Positions 25,363-48,397 of a DNA stretch of 64,000 bases are shown piece by piece. The position numbers were made by a program, and so were the translations under genes. The notes under the pieces were generated by a model. That model was not told the origin of the DNA and did not search any database. It saw only the letters and a program-made list of their open reading frames with translations. Positions within the stretch are counted from its first letter, which is position 1; every line of letters begins with the position of its first letter. The stretch comes from Akkermansia muciniphila (GTDB lineage: Bacteria > Verrucomicrobiota > Kiritimatiellia > RFP12 > JAAYNR01), in the NCBI GenBank assembly GCA_945870025.1, contig CAMBQN010000004.1, forward strand, positions 65,017-129,016. Reading direction: 5' to 3'.

Positions 25363-25439
25363 TGGTGGGCGGTGAGGGACTCGAACCCCCGACAGCCTGG
25401 GTGTAAACCAGGTACTCTAACCAACTGAGCTAACCGCCC
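25363..25439 (-). tRNA. tRNA-Val (anticodon UAC), CCA encoded
   Basis: Reverse complement reads GGGCGGTTAGCTCAGTTGGTTAGAGTACCTGGTTTACACCCAGGCTGTCGGGGGTTCGAGTCCCTCACCGCCCACCA. It has a 7-bp acceptor stem, D-loop AGCTCAGTTGGTTAGAG, anticodon stem CCTGG/CCAGG with loop TTTACAC, and T-arm GGTTCGAGTCC. Confidence 0.9.
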
Positions 25440-25505
25440 CAGTCGTCTGTGGTCGTAAAAAGTACCATACTCGACAGGGGTCTGCAAGCCAATCCCCCGA
25501 CAGCC

Positions 25506-25647
25506 CAGCAATTCTAATTATGACAGCCGCTATCGGGATCCAAATCGTGATCGGGACCGAAATCGACGAGAAAGCAAGGAATTCGACCCCGATAGCGATA
25601 GCGATTTCGATTTCGACTGTACGGATGTGCCATAATTAGAATTGCTG
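25506..25647. mobile_element. Family-B MITE-like element, copy B1 (142 bp), with 17-bp TIRs and a 9-bp flanking direct repeat
   Basis: TIRs are CAGCAATTCTAATTATG (25506-25522) and CATAATTAGAATTGCTG (25631-25647), a perfect inverted repeat. CCGACAGCC occurs immediately outside both ends (25497-25505 and 25648-25656). The interior holds CGAT-based hexamer arrays around a GGAATTC core. Confidence 0.85.
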
Positions 25648-25658
25648 CCGACAGCCAA

Positions 25659-27431
25659 TCACTTGCCCGCCATGCGAAAGTTGCCGAATCGCAGCTCGCC
25701 GCCAGCGGGCGCGTAGATCAACACGTTGAGCTTGCCAACCTCGGCGGGCAGGGGGAGTGTGTCGCGGTATTCCCAGGCGGTCAATGCGCTCTTGAAAGTC
25801 TTGTCGGCGCAGACGAAAAACGCGGTGTTTCGGCCGGGTTTGATGTAGAATGGCACCGTTTCAAAATAGCGCCCGCCCGCGTCGAGTCCGAGCGCCACTC
25901 GCGTGCCGCACGTGAGTCGGCTTTCCACGTCAACCAGCAGCGTGTCGCCCACGCGCAGCGTCAGCGCAGGCTCGCACAGCCGGCTAAACACCGTCTTTTC
26001 CTTGCTCCCAACCTGGAACCGCACCACAAGCCGCCCGTCGGCCTCAACGCCTTCCGCCGCATCGCCCCATTCCTCGCGAACCCATGTTGCCGTTTGACCG
26101 GCCCCACGGATAGGACGAGTCGGGCCCTCGGGCGGTCGCGCGTCGGACGGGTCGGACGCGCGGCGCATCCCGCCCGAGGCCTTGTCCACAAACGTCAAAT
26201 CAATCCCGCCGTGCTGACTGAGGAAGTACAAGATGAGGTTGACCCCCATCCGCGTCGCCCCTTCCTGCATCTCCGCCGGACTGAGGCTGGTAAGCGAGTC
26301 TTTCAGCGGCTGCGTGTGGGGATCGATGTTGAGGCCGTCACCATAATCGTTACGCGTGTAGATCACCGCGACACGTCCGTTGATCCGTATTCCCTCGATG
26401 TAGTCCTCACGGTATTTGTCGCCCGGCGGAATGGCATAGCCCTTGTAGCCGCGGGTCAGATCATAACCGGTGCGCCAGCCCTCAAAATCAGCGCCCAGCC
26501 GCTCGATGACCGCGTCCGGCAGAACCCGAGCGATTTCACGCCGGAAGGCCCGATCAAAGGTTTCATCGCGGTAGTGCGTCGAGTCATCGGCCCACAGGTG
26601 TCCGTTTTTCTGCAAATACTCGCGCAGGTTGCGCACTTCTGCGTCGGTGAAACGAAAATCATTATGACCGGTCAGATACACAAACGGAAGCCGTTTTAGT
26701 TCGGGTTGATCGAGCCGCACGACGGTGTCACCGGCCATCAGCGACATGCCGGTGCGCTCACGAAGTTGATGACTTAGAAACATCATCGCGGTCCGCGCGC
26801 AATCCCAGTCGCCGCCGTATTGCGCCAGGGCCAGCGTCGCCGAGACCGTGCCCGGACCGCTGCTGCCGCCCTTCAAGGCCAGATCGCCAGCCGTGCCGCT
26901 CTGTCGCCGCTGCGGCTGGCCGGTTCCCTTGGGCAGGGCGATACCGACGTTTCGCGCCGCATCCGGACGGTGTGCGTCGCCCACGGCCGCCACGCTTACC
27001 GCCGCCGCTGTCTTTCGCTGCGTCGCGCCACCCCCCGCATCCGACGCGCGGGCGACCGTTGCGGCTGTCGCTCCGCTCCCGGTCGACGTCGCGGCCGGTG
27101 CGGCACGGCGCTGCGCCCCGGCGGCCAGCGTGACCGTCTCCGCAACCACCGCAGCCGTTCCGGCTACCTGCCGCTCCGGCCCGAGGCTCTCCGGATGCGC
27201 CGCGTCGGGCGCCGCCCCACGTGCCGCGCCGCCCGACGCGACACGCGCCAGACCAACCGTCGCCGCCTCCGGCTGACGCGCATCGGCCCCGGCCGCCACA
27301 CCGCTCGCCGCCGACGTGCGATGCGCCGCGCCACCAGCCGCTTCCGACGCACGGGCGACCGTTGCGGCTGTCGCTCCGCTCCCGGTCGACGTCGCGGCCG
27401 GTGCGGTACGGCGCCGCGGCAGGTGCGGCAC
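25659..27431 (-). CDS. C-terminal portion of the split giant protein: Ala-rich ~100-aa repeats, DUF4159-like domain and a C-terminal beta domain
   Basis: DUF4159-like block LPFVYLTGHNDFRFTDAEVRNLREYLQKNGHLWADDS...VIYTRNDYGDG. The N-terminal 160 aa are the same repeat peptide encoded, in another frame, by the upstream ORF. The GTG start at 27431 is probably artefactual. Confidence 0.7.
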   Translation of the reverse strand: MPHLPRRRTAPAATSTGSGATAATVARASEAAGGAAHRTSAASGVAAGADARQPEAATVGLARVASGGAARGAAPDAAHPESLGPERQVAGTAAVVAETVTLAAGAQRRAAPAATSTGSGATAATVARASDAGGGATQRKTAAAVSVAAVGDAHRPDAARNVGIALPKGTGQPQRRQSGTAGDLALKGGSSGPGTVSATLALAQYGGDWDCARTAMMFLSHQLRERTGMSLMAGDTVVRLDQPELKRLPFVYLTGHNDFRFTDAEVRNLREYLQKNGHLWADDSTHYRDETFDRAFRREIARVLPDAVIERLGADFEGWRTGYDLTRGYKGYAIPPGDKYREDYIEGIRINGRVAVIYTRNDYGDGLNIDPHTQPLKDSLTSLSPAEMQEGATRMGVNLILYFLSQHGGIDLTFVDKASGGMRRASDPSDARPPEGPTRPIRGAGQTATWVREEWGDAAEGVEADGRLVVRFQVGSKEKTVFSRLCEPALTLRVGDTLLVDVESRLTCGTRVALGLDAGGRYFETVPFYIKPGRNTAFFVCADKTFKSALTAWEYRDTLPLPAEVGKLNVLIYAPAGGELRFGNFRMAGK

Positions 27432-30400
27432 GGCGCTGCGCCCCGGCCGCTAGCGTGACCGTCTCCGCAGCTACCGCAGTCGTACCGGCTACCTGTCGCT
27501 CCGGTCCGAGGCTTTCCGGTTGCGCCGCTTCGGGCGCCGCCCCACGTGTCGCACCGCCCGACGCGACACGCGCCAGCCCGACCGTCGCCGCCTCCGGCTG
27601 ACGCGCATCGGCCCCGGCCGCCACACCGCTCGCCGCCGACTTTCGCTGCGCCGCGCCACCCACCGCATCCGACGCGCGGGCGACCGTTGCGGCTGCCGCT
27701 CCGCTCCCGGTCGACGTCGCGGCCGGTGCGGCACGGCGCTGCGCCCCGGCGGCCAGCGTGACCGTCTCCGCAGCCACCGCAGCCGTTTCGGACGCCTGCC
27801 GCTCGGGTCCGAGGCTTTCCGGGTGCGCCGCTTCGGGCGCCGCGCCGCTCGGCGCGACACGGGCCAGCCCGACCGTCGCCGCCTCCGGCTGACGCGCATC
27901 GGCCCCGGCCGCTACATCGCTCGTCACCGACTTTCGTTGAGCCGCTTCGTCCTTTGCCATGGCCCGTTGCAGATCAACTGCACGTGCAGCATCCGCCCGC
28001 GCCACGCGTTCTGCATGTTTGGCCGACGCCTGCCGAAGTTCTTCCGGACTCGCCGCTGCGGTCGGTACCGGTTCACGTTCCGCTTCATCGGCCTTCCGTT
28101 CAATCGCATCGGGCATGCGCTCTCGCATCTTCGCCTCCATTGCCGCTACGGCGCTGGCGCTGAGGTCAGGTTGTGCGAGATCGGCTGCAGCGCGTGCCTC
28201 GGCCGCAGAAAGCGACTGCTCCGCCTTGGCCTGCTTGTCCAGTTCGGACGGCGTGTCCTTCACGGCAACAGCGCCAGCGGCTGGCGCCAGGGAGAAGCCC
28301 AGCTTCTCCTCGAGCGATCCGATCGTCACCGCCAAGGAGGGCGAGATTTGCTCCAAGGTCACCACCCGCGTCTGTAACAGCAGGTCGAGTGACAGCAGAA
28401 AGACGAGAACGTGCATGACCAGGCTTGCTGCAAAATATTTTGCGAGTCGGTTTTCTTCGCCTTGCGTCATCCGCCACAGCAGATAGAGGAGAATCAAAAG
28501 CAGGAGCAGAACCCCCGCAATCCGCCACGCATTATAGCTTCCGGCCGCGGCGGGGGTAACGGACGTCGGTTCGTCAACGGCGGCGGAGGGCACAACCTCC
28601 GAATTCGAAGCCGCCTCCGGTTCGGGTGGCGGCGTTTCGATTATCGGTTCGGGTTCAGGTTCAGGTTCAGGTTCCGGTGCGGTGACTACCGCCTGCTCCG
28701 GCTCGGGTGCGCGTTCAGGCTCTACAAGGACTTCGGCTTTGGGTTCCGGAACAACGACCCCTACAGTCCATGGAATCTCGACGGTGTTCCATCCCCAACT
28801 GATCGCCACCCGGCCGGTGAGTTGGGTGGTGGATCCGATTCCGGCGGTTCCTACCACGATCTGCCAGCGTGTGGTCTCGACCCCCAACGTCACGTCGCGA
28901 ACACCGTCGAAGCGGCCGTCAAACCCCAGTATCACCGCTTGCACGCGGCAGGCGCGGTCGGCAGCCTGCACGACGCCCCACACCGTTCCGGTCACCACCT
29001 GCCCCGGCGCGACAGGAGTCCACGACAGCTCCCTGGGTCCGATGACAATGGGCGGCGCACGGATGCGCACACAGACACTCACCTCGGCTCGTGGAAGCGT
29101 GCCGACGGTCACCACCACTCGTCCGGTGGACACGCTTGGGCGCGCGTCACGACCCGCTGTCACTGCCAGCCCCAGCTCGAGCTGCCGTCCTTCGGGGATG
29201 TTTTCGCCACTCGGCAACAGGGACACAAGCCCTGCGCTGAACCCTTGCACATCGGCGGTAAAGTGTCCGCGCCCCGCGATCACCACTCGTCCCGTCACCG
29301 TGCAACCGGGGTCAAGTTCCAAAACCAGCGGCTTAGGCTGCACCCAGAGCGCGTCCCGCCGCATCGGCGTCACGTGTTGATGCTGGACGGCGATGCGTTG
29401 AAAGGGAAGGCCGGCTTCGGTGACGCCCCGTGCCGTTGCCTGCCAGACCGACGGGCCTGGGCCAGCCGGAACGGCAAAACCCTCGAAATAACCGCGATCG
29501 GTTACGTCGAGTTTCTGTTGGGCGCCGCCCGTGCCGGTCGTCAGCGACACATCGCAGCCGCGTGTCATGGCCTCGCCGTCGCGCACGACCAGTGCCGCTA
29601 CCGCCTGAGGCACGGCATCGGTCACAACGCCTGTGGGCGGGAACAGCACGAGTTCCAGATCACTTTCGGCGGTCGCGGCCAGTGCGCCGAGGCCCGTGGC
29701 CCGCCACAGACCCCTTGCGGGCGCATACCGCTCGGCCATGGAATCGCTCGCGCGGGCCGTCCGCAACGCCACCGCCGCCCCGCCGTCCGGGAGTGTGATC
29801 ACGGCCTGGACATCCTCGTCAGCGGCCAGCGTCAGCGTCAGCAGGCGCACGCTGTCGTCCACCGGAACATCGGCATCGTCCGTCGTGAGATCCCAGGTGC
29901 CGATCGACACCGAGGGGTGGATGGCCAAAACGATTTCCTGAAAAATAGTCTCCAGACGGGTCATGTCGGGCGCAAATGAAAAAGTTCCGCCGGTATTCTG
30001 GGCAATGCGATCCAGGGTATTGCTGTCGGCCAACGTGGAGAGCCCGACGGTATAGACCGGGATACGCGAGGCCGTGAATCGGCGATGGGAATCTTCATAG
30101 CGACCCGGTTCGTCCCTGCCGTCCGACAGCACCACGACGATCTTGCGGGAGTCGGGGAGGGTGGCGAGGGTCTGGTCGGCCAAAATCAGCGCGGCGTCGA
30201 GATCGGTCGAGCCGCGCGCGACCAGACCTGCCATGGCCTGTTCGAACGTCCCCGTGTCAGCCGGCGGGGTAGGGGACAGGAGCAGGCGCGGCCGCCGTTC
30301 AAACGCGACCACTGAGAGGGTGCGCACGACGCCGCGGCTGGCGGCGATGCGCGCAAAGAGGGTCAGCGCGCTGACGCGCAGACGCGCGGGATCGGTCTTG

Positions 30401-32024: not shown

Positions 32025-32162
32025 CACCGCATTGTTGGCGGTCATGTTTTTCTTTCGGGGTCGGGGTCGGTATCGGTATCGGGGTCGAATTTCCGTTGTT
32101 TTTATCCGAAACCGATCCCGCCCCCGACGCCGATGGTCCTATCTCCAAAATGAGAATTTCTG
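32025..32162. repeat. Family-B element, diverged copy B2, opposite orientation
   Basis: ...CGGTATCGGTATCGGGGTCGAATTTCCGTTGTTTTTATCCGAAACCGATCCCG... aligns with the reverse complement of B1. The right TIR CAAAATGAGAATTTCTG (32146-32162) matches 15/17 to B3's. The left TIR is degenerate. It lies between the TPM gene and exbB. Confidence 0.6.
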
Positions 32163-44146: not shown

Positions 44147-44206
44147 CTTTGTCGCGAACTTTGTCGGGAGCTTTGTCGACAACGTTCGCGACTAAGCTCG
44201 CGACGG
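44147..44206. repeat. 12-bp tandem array (5 units): CTTTGTCGCGAA / CTTTGTCGGGAG / CTTTGTCGACAA / CGTTCGCGACTA / AGCTCGCGACGG
   Basis: Period-12 repetition read directly. The first and last units contain mutually complementary GTCGCGAAC / GTTCGCGAC. Confidence 0.7.
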
Positions 44207-44217
44207 TAGAACCCGGC

Positions 44218-44293
44218 GGACGACTACGGCGACGACTACGGATAACGAGGGGAATTCCGAATTCGTCCACCGTCGTCGTCGCCGTAGTCGTCC
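44218..44293. repeat. Family-C palindromic element: 19-bp perfect stem (GGACGACTACGGCGACGAC / GTCGTCGCCGTAGTCGTCC) around a GGAATTCCGAATTC core
   Basis: Arms at 44218-44236 and 44275-44293. The loop is TACGGATAACGAGGGGAATTCCGAATTCGTCCACCGTC. The right half is related to 48062-48104. Confidence 0.8.
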
Positions 44294-45186
44294 ACCGACC
44301 CGTGTCCGGCGGGACTGGAACAGGAAAACCACGCCAGGCCCTGCTTGCGGTAGGCGCGGGGGCCGATGCCGATCTCGCGCTTGAAAAGCCGGCTGAAATG
44401 GAACGCGTCCGGGTAGCCGCAGGCCTCGCCCACCTCGGCCACCGTGTGATCCGTCGTAACCAGCATCTGCTGGGCCCGGCGCAGGCGGATCCGCGCCACG
44501 TATTGCAGCGGCGGCACTCCCAACACCCGACGGAAGGCCACGTGGAACCGGGAGGGCGACATGTGCGCCCGCTCCGCCAGGTCGTCCCGCGTCAGGGGCT
44601 CCTGCACGTGCTGCTGGATGAAGGCCAGCACCGGCGCGAGCCGCGCGGCGCCTTCCTCAAAGGCTTGGTAGGACGGTCGCAGGGTCGCCTGGCTCAGCAC
44701 CAGCCTCAGGAGTCGCAGTCCGATCTCCTGGATCTCGATCCGAACCGCCAGTGCGCCGTCGTCTCCCTTGGCCAGCAACTGGCTCAGCCGCGCGCTGCCG
44801 TCCCCGAGTTCCGGCGAGGTCGCCCGCGACGCGAGGTCAGGGACGTCGTAGAAATCGAACAGGCTCACCGACCCCAGCACGCGGAAGTTCAGGTGGCTCC
44901 ACCAACTGGCACCTTCCCGGCTCTCGAATACTTCGACCCGGTGCCTCACGCCGGGAGCGATGAGAACTGCGCCGCCCGGCCGCGTCTCGACGGTCTGCAC
45001 ACGCGCCGCGCGCTCGACATCGACCCGGAGCCGGCAGCTCCGTCCCTGCGTCACGAGCAAGGCCGGAAGAATCCGCCAGCCCGTGCTGTGGCCGTTGGGG
45101 ACCGGGGTCACGCCCGCAGTCTCCACCTCCACCGTCAGCGACTCGACCAGCCGCGCCTCGAACCTCGCGGTCTCCGGAACTCCCAT
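44236..45186 (-). CDS. AraC-family transcriptional regulator
   Basis: C-terminal double HTH LTRDDLAERAHMSPSRFHVAFRRVLGVPPLQYVARIRLRRAQQML...ACGYPDAFHFSRLFKREIGIGPRAYR. The N-terminal half is cupin-like. The last ~19 codons (VDDYGDDDGGRIRNSPRYP) are encoded by the family-C repeat. Confidence 0.85.
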   Translation of the reverse strand: MGVPETARFEARLVESLTVEVETAGVTPVPNGHSTGWRILPALLVTQGRSCRLRVDVERAARVQTVETRPGGAVLIAPGVRHRVEVFESREGASWWSHLNFRVLGSVSLFDFYDVPDLASRATSPELGDGSARLSQLLAKGDDGALAVRIEIQEIGLRLLRLVLSQATLRPSYQAFEEGAARLAPVLAFIQQHVQEPLTRDDLAERAHMSPSRFHVAFRRVLGVPPLQYVARIRLRRAQQMLVTTDHTVAEVGEACGYPDAFHFSRLFKREIGIGPRAYRKQGLAWFSCSSPAGHGSVDDYGDDDGGRIRNSPRYP

Positions 45187-48061: not shown

Positions 48062-48190
48062 GAAATCGTCATCCGTAGTCGTCGCCGTCGTCGTCCACCG
48101 ACCGATGCGACGGCCGCAGGAGGATGTAGCAGGGATCGACCGGAGGGAATCGTCATCCGCTCTCGTCGCCCGCTCTCGTCCACCGGACGG
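48062..48190. repeat. Two direct family-C half-copies (48062-48104 and 48146-48190)
   Basis: The two copies are GAAATCGTCATCCGTAGTCGTCGCCGTCGTCGTCCACCGACCG and GGAATCGTCATCCGCTCTCGTCGCCCGCTCTCGTCCACCGGACGG. Compare 44259-44302, GAATTCGTCCACCGTCGTCGTCGCCGTAGTCGTCCACCGACCCG. Confidence 0.75.
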
Positions 48191-48242: not shown

Positions 48243-48397
48243 CAGCAATTCTCATTATGGTCGTCGATTTCGGTATCCAAATCGAAATCGGGATCGGGAT
48301 CGACGAGAAAGATGGGAATTCAACCCCGACCCCGATAGCGATAGCGATTTCGATTTCGATTTCGACTGGCCGGATGCGATCAAAATTAGAATTGCTG
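48243..48397. mobile_element. Family-B MITE-like element, copy B3 (155 bp)
   Basis: TIRs are CAGCAATTCTCATTATG (48243-48259) and CAAAATTAGAATTGCTG (48381-48397). The interior is collinear with copy B1 (…CGACGAGAAAG..GGGAATTCAACCCC(GACCCC)GATAGCGATAGCGATTTCGATTTCGATTTCGAC…) with one extra hexamer in two of the arrays. No flanking direct repeat. Confidence 0.8.

Follow-up and report, generated by a model that had tools for sequence, protein, structure and literature searches.

B1, a repeat at 25506-25647 on the plus strand of the window (the whole 64,000-nt stretch analysed here), is very probably a non-autonomous MITE (miniature inverted-repeat transposable element) that moved recently within this Kiritimatiellia genus and whose arms gain and lose hexamers by slippage. 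As a kind of element it is ordinary. The window belongs to G000, a metagenome-assembled genome (MAG) of 2.76 Mb in 59 contigs with 62% GC; G001-G004 denote sister species or same-genus relatives of G000, and C-numbers denote contigs. The initial annotation described dispersed repeat families in this window (A, B and C) as sharing one design, a GGAATTC-type core flanked by short-period arrays, and recognised in them no described class. All of the strings that it quoted are present at or near the places it gave (B1 25577-25617, B3 48243-48397, B2 ~32055-32162 on the minus strand, C1 44214-44297 and C2 48062-48103). A repeat finder and Tandem Repeats Finder recovered the B1/B3 and C1/C2 pairs together with their arrays, and Tandem Repeats Finder also reported the heptad arrays of family A. 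The span originally assigned to B1, 25523-25630, is its interior alone; the full element comprises 25506-25647 and is flanked by 9-bp duplications:

25497-25505: 9-bp target-site duplication (TSD) on the left side, CCGACAGCC; the identical 9-mer stands on either side of B1
25506-25647, plus strand: B1 element, 142 bp, with terminal inverted repeats (TIRs) and TSD read directly
25506-25522, plus strand: left TIR, CAGCAATTCTAATTATG, 17 bp, the perfect reverse complement of 25631-25647
25529-25564, plus strand: left hairpin arm, GCTATC GGGATC CAAATC GTGATC GGGACC GAAATC, read directly
25565-25590, plus strand: loop and core, GACGAGAAAGCAAGGAATTC and then GACCCC, the unpaired purine-rich apex in the predicted fold
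25591-25617, plus strand: right hairpin arm with the arrays GATAGC x2, GATTTC x2 and GAC, from Tandem Repeats Finder
25631-25647, plus strand: right TIR, CATAATTAGAATTGCTG, read directly
25648-25656: right copy of the TSD, CCGACAGCC, identical to the left copy

The two ends of B1 are complementary at 17/17 positions, and the 108-nt interior between them contains no gene and is a near-palindrome. Each of the six left-arm hexamers ends in (A/C)TC and is followed by G. The hexanucleotide GAATTC lies at 25579-25584 within the loop and core; the core string AAGGAATTCGACCCC continues into GATAGC GATAGC GATTTC GATTTC GAC at 25577-25617, where Tandem Repeats Finder reports CGATAG x2.7 and CGATTT x2.5 (25590-25616).

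B1 is one of many copies in G000. A BLAST search with B1 returned 59 matches at E<1e-10, and over 142 nt most of these are 92-100% identical. A length of exactly 142 nt is found in 28 copies, which differ from the consensus by a median of 3 substitutions. Searching with B2 gave ~25 matches. The genome contains 148 TIR-like sequences at <=3 mismatches and 59 elements bounded by TIRs. The 9-bp flanks agree at <=1 mismatch in 20/57 TIR-bounded elements, against 0.37 expected from permuted flanks, and these TSDs have no fixed sequence. Nearly all of the elements (55/57) are intergenic under a rough gene model with an 82% coding fraction. Their placement along the genome is random-like, with 15 gaps shorter than 5 kb compared with 13.8 expected, and regional clustering was rejected. 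Chance low complexity, the alternative under which genome-wide copies would show no consistent ends or core, is ruled out by the 59 near-identical copies with their consistent TIR and core.

Two further B elements lie in the window:

48243-48397, plus strand: B3, 155 bp, 78% identical to B1, with the same TIR, one more GACCCC and one more GATTTC
~32055-32162, minus strand: copy of the B2 subfamily with GATACC x2 and GACCCC x2, bearing a degenerate TIR, CAGAAATTCTCATTTTG, on one side and truncated on the other

B3 is an older relative of B1, and its hexamer arrays are scored by Tandem Repeats Finder as x2.7 and x3.5 at 48333-48365. Complete B2 copies elsewhere in G000 are 144 bp long and carry the B TIR. 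Because complete B2 and B3 have this TIR in common with B1, the three are subfamilies of one TIR family. They differ all along their arms (70-80% identity), and the loop and core form the best conserved interior segment across them. The core that they have in common, GGAA(A)TTCGACCCCGAT, is due to descent; in B2 it reads GGAAATTC, without GAATTC. About 90 loci of G000 are accounted for as one MITE superfamily.

Comparison with the relatives points to recent movement. In G002 the window locus reads CCCCCGACAGCCAATCAC, with a single CCGACAGCC and no element, which is an exact empty site; the element is also missing from this locus in G003 and G001. Two insertions elsewhere in G004, one of them with the TSD ATCGGGTAA, have no counterpart in G000. 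These empty sites and filled/empty loci between sister species imply that the element moved recently. G004 also holds copies that are 100% identical to the G000 consensus, and orthologous flanks of the two genomes are ~89-98% identical. Relative to G003 and G001, G002 has 15 extra bases at the window locus (AGCCAATCCCCCGAC), so that AGCCAATC flanks CCCCGAC; B1 of G000 lies inside this extra piece. The 15 bases may be the footprint of an older element.

Family B has the marks of a MITE, namely a length of 142 bp without a transposase gene, TIRs, a 9-bp TSD, many copies and precise empty sites. The earlier view that the element stands outside the described MITE classes therefore does not hold; families C and D (below) have TIRs as well. 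Identity with REP/BIME sequences is ruled out by the 142-bp size, the TIR and the TSD, and identity with IS630-type MITEs (Correia, RUP; TA duplication) by 9-bp TSDs of no fixed sequence. As far as we checked Rfam, plasmids and open full text, family B itself is undescribed. No Rfam family matched at its gathering score, and at a loose E-value the only match was a plant microRNA hairpin (25 bits, gathering score 90); no B sequence was found among plasmids, and the TIR string was not found in open full text. Mechanistically, a transposase supplied in trans would recognise the 17-bp TIRs and cut its target with a 9-bp stagger, leaving the 9-bp duplication, and B1, B2 and B3 could all be served through their one TIR.

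The interior of B is predicted to fold into a hairpin. Predicted folding energies of the whole element are −56 kcal/mol for B1 (z −6.3) and −85 kcal/mol for B2 (z −11.5). Left-arm hexamers end in ATC with a G after them, those of the right arm are GAYNNC units, and in the predicted fold the invariant ATCG of the left arm pairs with CGAT of the right arm every six bases. The B1 arms are poorly complementary and form short helices split by 2x2 internal loops; those of B2 are almost fully paired. The apex is purine-rich, and GAATTC makes up the 3′ edge of the loop, adjoining GACCCC. By eye, the arm units vary independently, without compensation.

Unit counts were taken over the 43 complete TIR-bounded B1 copies. 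These contain GATAGC x1-3 and GATTTC x2-3 (GATTTC x1 occurs only in truncated copies), and 12/43 are whole-unit length variants: four have one GATAGC fewer, two have one more, three have one more GATTTC, and three are missing 1-3 left-arm units. Indels outside the arrays occur in only 4/43 copies (+2, −1, +1 and one 12-nt duplication). B1 copies accordingly fall into length classes of 124, 130, 136, 142 and 148 nt. This bears out the initial description of dispersed repeats whose ends and core stay constant while the internal arrays change in unit number.

One orthologous pair separates such change after insertion from the origin of subfamilies. The copies at G000 C50:13406-13553 and G004 C433:1341-1476 lie in flanks that are 95.6% identical, and both bear AAAGAAAGG and GATGCGCC as private substitutions; one CGATCC and one CGATTT unit set them apart (148 nt in G000, 136 nt in G004). 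Common private substitutions combined with a two-unit difference show that the units changed after insertion. The short tandem arms could misalign during replication or repair, such that whole 6-nt units would be gained or lost after insertion and the observed length classes would arise. Slipped-strand mispairing, which the initial annotation had already proposed and which this pair shows to be a sound mechanism for copy-number change, appears to be the simplest cause, plausibly favoured by the hairpin-prone sequence. The hairpin is probably a relic or helper of transposition rather than the bearer of a host function. The pair offers a clean natural case of microsatellite-type slippage within a transposon.

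Several observations weigh against this account of B as a mobile element that inserts once and then slips. A clean TSD is kept at only ~1/3 of copies. No autonomous element with B TIRs was found in G000, its relatives or the collections searched, the genomes being draft MAGs, where the assembly of insertion sequences often fails; mobility is for this reason deduced from insertion polymorphism and not from a known enzyme. Some units are replaced at constant length: 144-bp B2 copies carry either (GGGGTC)2(GGTATC)2 or (GGGGTC)1(GGTATC)3, and one G004 B1 copy has GACCCC x2 and GATTTC x3 and no GATAGC. Each such replacement needs two slippage events or a conversion. The nine orthologous occupied loci that were compared comprise three with the same element in both species, one with the same element and two unit changes, and five whose occupants, at the same or a neighbouring position, differ between species in subfamily, orientation or both; slippage after a single insertion does not explain these 5/9 changed loci.

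The changed loci raise the alternative that interiors change mainly by templated replacement, in which copies would be overwritten or flipped through TIR-anchored recombination, gene conversion or inversion between their own TIRs while the ends, the TSD and the site persist. At C28:33520 of G000 a B1 element, and at its C51 counterpart in G002 a B3-like element in the opposite orientation, share the same 9-bp TSD GAATCCGGC. The window locus holds B1 in G000 and a B2-type element in G004 at an identical left junction (CCGACAGCC running into CAGCAATT), and C49:2098 has B2 in G000 and a B1-like element in G003, again with one left junction. Identical TSDs point to interiors being replaced or inverted where they stand, with the TIRs as anchors, and the constant-length unit replacements in some B2 copies agree with it. 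Offset TSDs, by contrast, point to repeated insertion into preferred spots, and two loci fit such independent insertions: at C49:8651 the element is inverted between species with TSDs offset by 1-2 nt, and at C13:43450 the duplications and elements lie ~19 nt apart. Moreover, 17 bp of TIR is little for homologous recombination to act on, the left end of the window-locus element in G004 is scrambled (CAGCAATTGCCCACCATGCAATTC) and its right flank differs, and no direct intermediate was seen. We regard templated replacement as the principal route of interior change as rather unlikely, and retain transposition followed by slippage as the better account of B. The earlier suggestion that arrays swap sequence is not supported: arrays do not mutate into one another within a copy. 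What had looked like swapping is mostly the divergence of subfamilies that share a TIR, together with different occupants of the same sites in sister species.

GAATTC recurs in two other MITE families of G000 that have different TIRs. Family C is bounded elsewhere in the genome by TAACTACTCAGG...CCTGAGYWGTTA; its TIR is TAACTACTCAGG, its arms consist of 12-nt units and its loop ends in AACGAGGGGAATTCCGAATTC. Family D has the TIR GCCTGTCCGAAAAGG, arms of CTTTGTCGCGAG units and a loop ending in GAATTC (GGGGAAGAATTC). Members include the following:

44214-44297, plus strand: C1, hairpin core of this different MITE family, with 12-nt arm units GACGACTACGGC and loop GGGGAATTCCGAATTC
48062-48103, plus strand: C2, half-hairpin fragment of family C, the GAATTC loop missing
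G000 C2:79239-79560 and C7:42031-42212: family D copies, with related arms at 44147-44204 of the window

Both complete D copies sit in CTA..TAG palindromic targets (TCTAATTA and CTAGCTAG), and a B1 copy has one D copy nested within its TIR. In B, C and D alike, short-period arms surround a purine-rich loop ending in GAATTCG(A/T)C. The proposed GGAATTC design thus stands within B, where it is due to descent, and extends as GAATTC to the loops of C and D; it is not universal, since B2 reads GGAAATTC, C2 lacks the motif and one family C copy has another loop, without GAATTC. Genome-wide enrichment of GAATTC was ruled out: G000 has 625 sites in 2.76 Mb, an observed/expected ratio of 1.02. As the motif is neither enriched nor depleted, three loops with it at the same position are unlikely by chance; our rough estimate, allowing for the number of families, is ~1e-4. 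A crude test of minimum free energy at and around GAATTC sites was not discriminating.

This recurrence might mean that the hairpin interior with its GAATTC loop is a functional module under selection, be it a protein-binding site, an RNA element or a promoter, carried by several MITE families. Besides the three families with different TIRs and the low expectation of finding their loops by chance, such a module would fit the almost perfect arm pairing of B2, whose units differ from those of B1, and a weak outward promoter-like site at the right end of B1 (TCGACT-18-TAGAAT, 9/12; window 25613-25642, plus strand), whose TAGAAT lies within the right TIR. However, the B1 arms are poorly complementary and their units do not compensate for one another, 5/16 interiors of the wider TIR superfamily (below) have no significant structure, the motif is missing from B2, C2 and one C copy, and Rfam offers no match. 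Nor are the elements clearly biased in orientation with respect to the genes beside them (19 same and 11 opposite in tandem gaps), and they show no preference for gene 3′ ends. We consider selection on a functional module improbable. Still less credible is a coding role, in which a small peptide of 39 codons would run from an ATG in the left TIR to a TAG in the right TIR, on either strand, with GAYNNC units read as Asp-X repeats. Such ATG-to-TAG frames can indeed be read directly on both strands, and indels in multiples of 6 preserve them, but array slippage yields multiples of 6 whether the sequence is coding or not. The interiors found in other lineages are unrelated, and we rejected the coding hypothesis because stop codons close the Asp-X frame in B2 and the frames follow from the palindromic TIR (TAATTATG/CATAATTAG).

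The ends of B reach well beyond this genus. When a single genome of each species was scanned for the exact B TIR pair, spaced as in a MITE, 90 stretches were returned, from MAGs labelled Kiritimatiellia, Lentisphaerales, Chloroflexota/Anaerolineales, Desulfobacterales/Desulfobacteraceae, Candidatus Desantisbacteria, Planctomycetota, Ectothiorhodospiraceae and others. The MAG labelled 'Akkermansia sp.' is G001, listed in the same genus as the window's MAG. By eye, most of ~12 flank pairs from other lineages show 9-bp (occasionally 10-bp) duplications. The interiors form 14 unrelated clusters, and a period of 6 appears only in the Kiritimatiellia-type cluster (lag-6 identity 0.52 compared with 0.22 at other lags). 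Of 16 representative interiors, 11 fold significantly better than shuffles and five do not. Unrelated interiors within one TIR pair imply that the ends are constrained and the interiors interchangeable. In a published survey 97.4% of MITE clusters were confined to one genus (PMC11602168); the B TIR, unlike these, turns up in MAGs that bear the labels of several phyla. Strong multi-contig support exists for one Chloroflexota MAG (28+29 TIR matches) and one Lentisphaerales MAG (45+38). Cross-phylum matches on single contigs, namely those in Terrimicrobiaceae, Planctomycetota, Ectothiorhodospiraceae and Desantisbacteria, may be binning errors.

We tentatively entertain a broader possibility, to which we would give somewhat less than even weight: that CAGCAATTCTAATTATG(GC), 17-20 bp, is the site of one horizontally spreading transposase lineage serving at least 14 unrelated interiors across phyla (Verrucomicrobiota and the wider Planctomycetes-Verrucomicrobia-Chlamydiae group, Chloroflexota, Desulfobacterota and others). 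Inside a genus, resident copies would repeatedly be replaced or flipped where they sit, ends and interiors would evolve as separable modules, and the hexamer-array hairpin with its GAATTC loop, as one such interior, would also have been paired with the TIRs of C and D in G000. Nested insertion followed by deletion is a plausible route for recombining ends and interiors, given the D copy nested in a B1 TIR and a second short repeat, E, that abuts the right TIR of B. The TIR and TSD signature around unrelated interiors points to a widespread transposase not yet tied to these ends and, if confirmed in complete genomes, would offer a tractable system for studying MITE interior exchange and the crossing of phyla. 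These cross-phylum conserved ends with free interior exchange, and how often the same sites change their occupant, are what remains interesting about an otherwise ordinary element.

Several individual matches are also of note. G025, from another family of the same order (CAIOST01), has a B1 copy 99% identical to the G000 consensus, which means either that the MITE was recently transferred horizontally or that the contig was mis-binned. A near-identical B1 copy also occurs in a 'Terrimicrobiaceae' MAG from the same lake study. The Chloroflexota MITE interior (e.g. L062) begins ATGGCAATTCGACCCCG; it and the B core (GGAATTCGACCCCGAT) have the 12-mer AATTCGACCCCG in common and are otherwise unrelated. 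Viral contigs lack the TIR pair; eight single-TIR matches in AT-rich viral DNA without a second TIR were taken as chance, and four of these are one conserved gene read on either strand.

Searches for the mobilising transposase have yielded one weak lead. TIR pairs 0.3-4 kb apart in G000, the candidates for an autonomous parent, are all nested or composite MITEs. The wider interval C7:68568-78084 was likewise rejected as a parent: it consists of two MITE halves, the first 40 nt and the final ~45 nt of a B1 element, with 9.5 kb of ordinary genes between them. It could have arisen by rearrangement through MITE copies, or it could be a composite element. The 20 loci with PF01609 transposases in nine relatives have no B TIR close by. 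Solo TIRs in the complete 6.1-Mb chromosome OW818680 and in the Chloroflexota MAG adjoin ordinary genes or contig-end MITEs, with the exception of one chimeric ISAs1 gene. In this Chloroflexota MAG, which has ~28 copies, a perfect B TIR stands directly before a frameshifted ISAs1 transposase gene (NF033564, E 1.7e-122). The other end of that gene is an ordinary ISAs1 repeat, leaving the B TIR on one side only, and in relatives of the gene the left repeat lies ~100 nt upstream of the start codon, which makes the junction with the B TIR look like a truncation.

Other observations bear on ISAs1 in both directions. ISAs1 relatives in metagenomes and the ISAs1-type MITEs of G000 have 9-10 bp TSDs. 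G000 contains 29 ISAs1-type ends (CAGGGCGAACGCATCTAA), including 170-260 bp MITEs with TSDs >=10 bp, which form a separate family:

G000 C8:2532-2701, C10:5760-6018, C35:23729-23985 and C43:6576-6832: ISAs1-type MITEs

Four ISAs1-type ends abut B copies (0-10 nt) in G000, compared with 0.13 expected. The ends of ISAs1 and B have the terminal CAG in common, as well as a partial likeness, CAG..CAAT..TCTAA.TT, but aligning the ISAs1 end consensus CAGGGCAATCGCATCTAAA with the B TIR CAGCAATTCTAATTATG takes three gaps, and against the ISAs1 inverted repeat (CAGGGCAATCGCATCT...) the B ends show no match beyond CAG and a displaced TCTAA(T)T. A TIR followed by the DPR motif of the transposase was matched 0 times, both in the metagenome scan and across 401 genomes of the phylum. 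Not one of 80 ISAs1 loci has its gene behind a B TIR, their inverted repeat being different, and 13/16 MITE-bearing genomes searched contain no close ISAs1 homologue. An ISAs1-like enzyme is the best lead to the mobiliser of B, but we hold it to be rather unlikely. ISAs1 transposase genes with an ISAs1-type end downstream occur in G004:C83 and G002:C27, not in G000.

Family B resembles several known intergenic repeats. Correia/NEMIS of Neisseria, RUP of Streptococcus and MITEAba12 of Acinetobacter are, like B, intergenic elements of 100-160 bp with TIRs, many copies and hairpin potential. Correia and RUP duplicate TA, and MITEAba12 reportedly gives 9-bp TSDs; to our knowledge none of these has been described with hexamer-array arms. 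REP/BIME and ERIC sequences are likewise intergenic, repeated and palindromic. REPs are 20-40 nt long, without TIR or TSD, and are handled by RAYT (Y1) transposases; B carries TIRs of 17 bp and TSDs of 9 bp.

The nearest parallel to the B arrays in the literature, likened by layout, is BrickBuilt of Porphyromonas gingivalis, an intergenic multi-copy MITE with small inverted-repeat ends and a tandem-array body that varies in copy number (Klein et al. 2015, PMC4596501), which provides the precedent for a satellite inside a prokaryotic MITE. B is a satellite-bearing MITE of this type, in that its internal array varies (12/43 copies) between constant ends. The two differ in host phylum, TIR and TSD, and also in architecture: BrickBuilt has one head-to-tail array of 23-nt units, whereas B has two inverted arrays of 6-nt units that form hairpin arms around a unique loop. 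More distant parallels are the Tn3-derived TIMEs, which are mosaic non-autonomous transposons (PMC4133298), and DTC84 of Donax, a eukaryotic MITE containing tandem repeats (PMC3879986). They reportedly resemble B in having separable ends and interiors and tandem arrays between constant ends; they differ in transposase families and TSD lengths, and DTC84 in being eukaryotic.

Within the window B1 lies between a tRNA gene and an open reading frame (ORF):

25363-25439, minus strand: tRNA-Val(TAC) gene, its 5′ end 66 nt from B1, which lies upstream
25659-27431, minus strand: neighbouring ORF; B1 lies 2 nt beyond its stop codon

By symmetry with the right end, the left TIR presents a TAGAAT box towards tRNA-Val. 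A 325-bp tandem repeat (2.7 copies, 85% matches) occupies 27090-27945 within the long minus-strand ORFs beside B1.

Repeats also shape the assembly of G000. Seven of its contigs (C14, C23, C24, C25, C35, C43 and C56) start with repeat E, a sequence of ~150 nt (AGACTAACTGCGCCCCCTCCCC...GTCAATCGACC) that in three contigs runs directly into the right TIR of a B element, and almost all contig ends are a repeat of ~149 nt. The assembly is fragmented because B repeats and several other short repeat families end almost every contig. TAATTA is 2.7-fold enriched in G000, owing to the B TIR. CAGCTG is strongly avoided (62 sites compared with 682 expected, a ratio of 0.09), and GAGCTC and CTCGAG are also low; the avoidance of CAGCTG suggests restriction-modification pressure.

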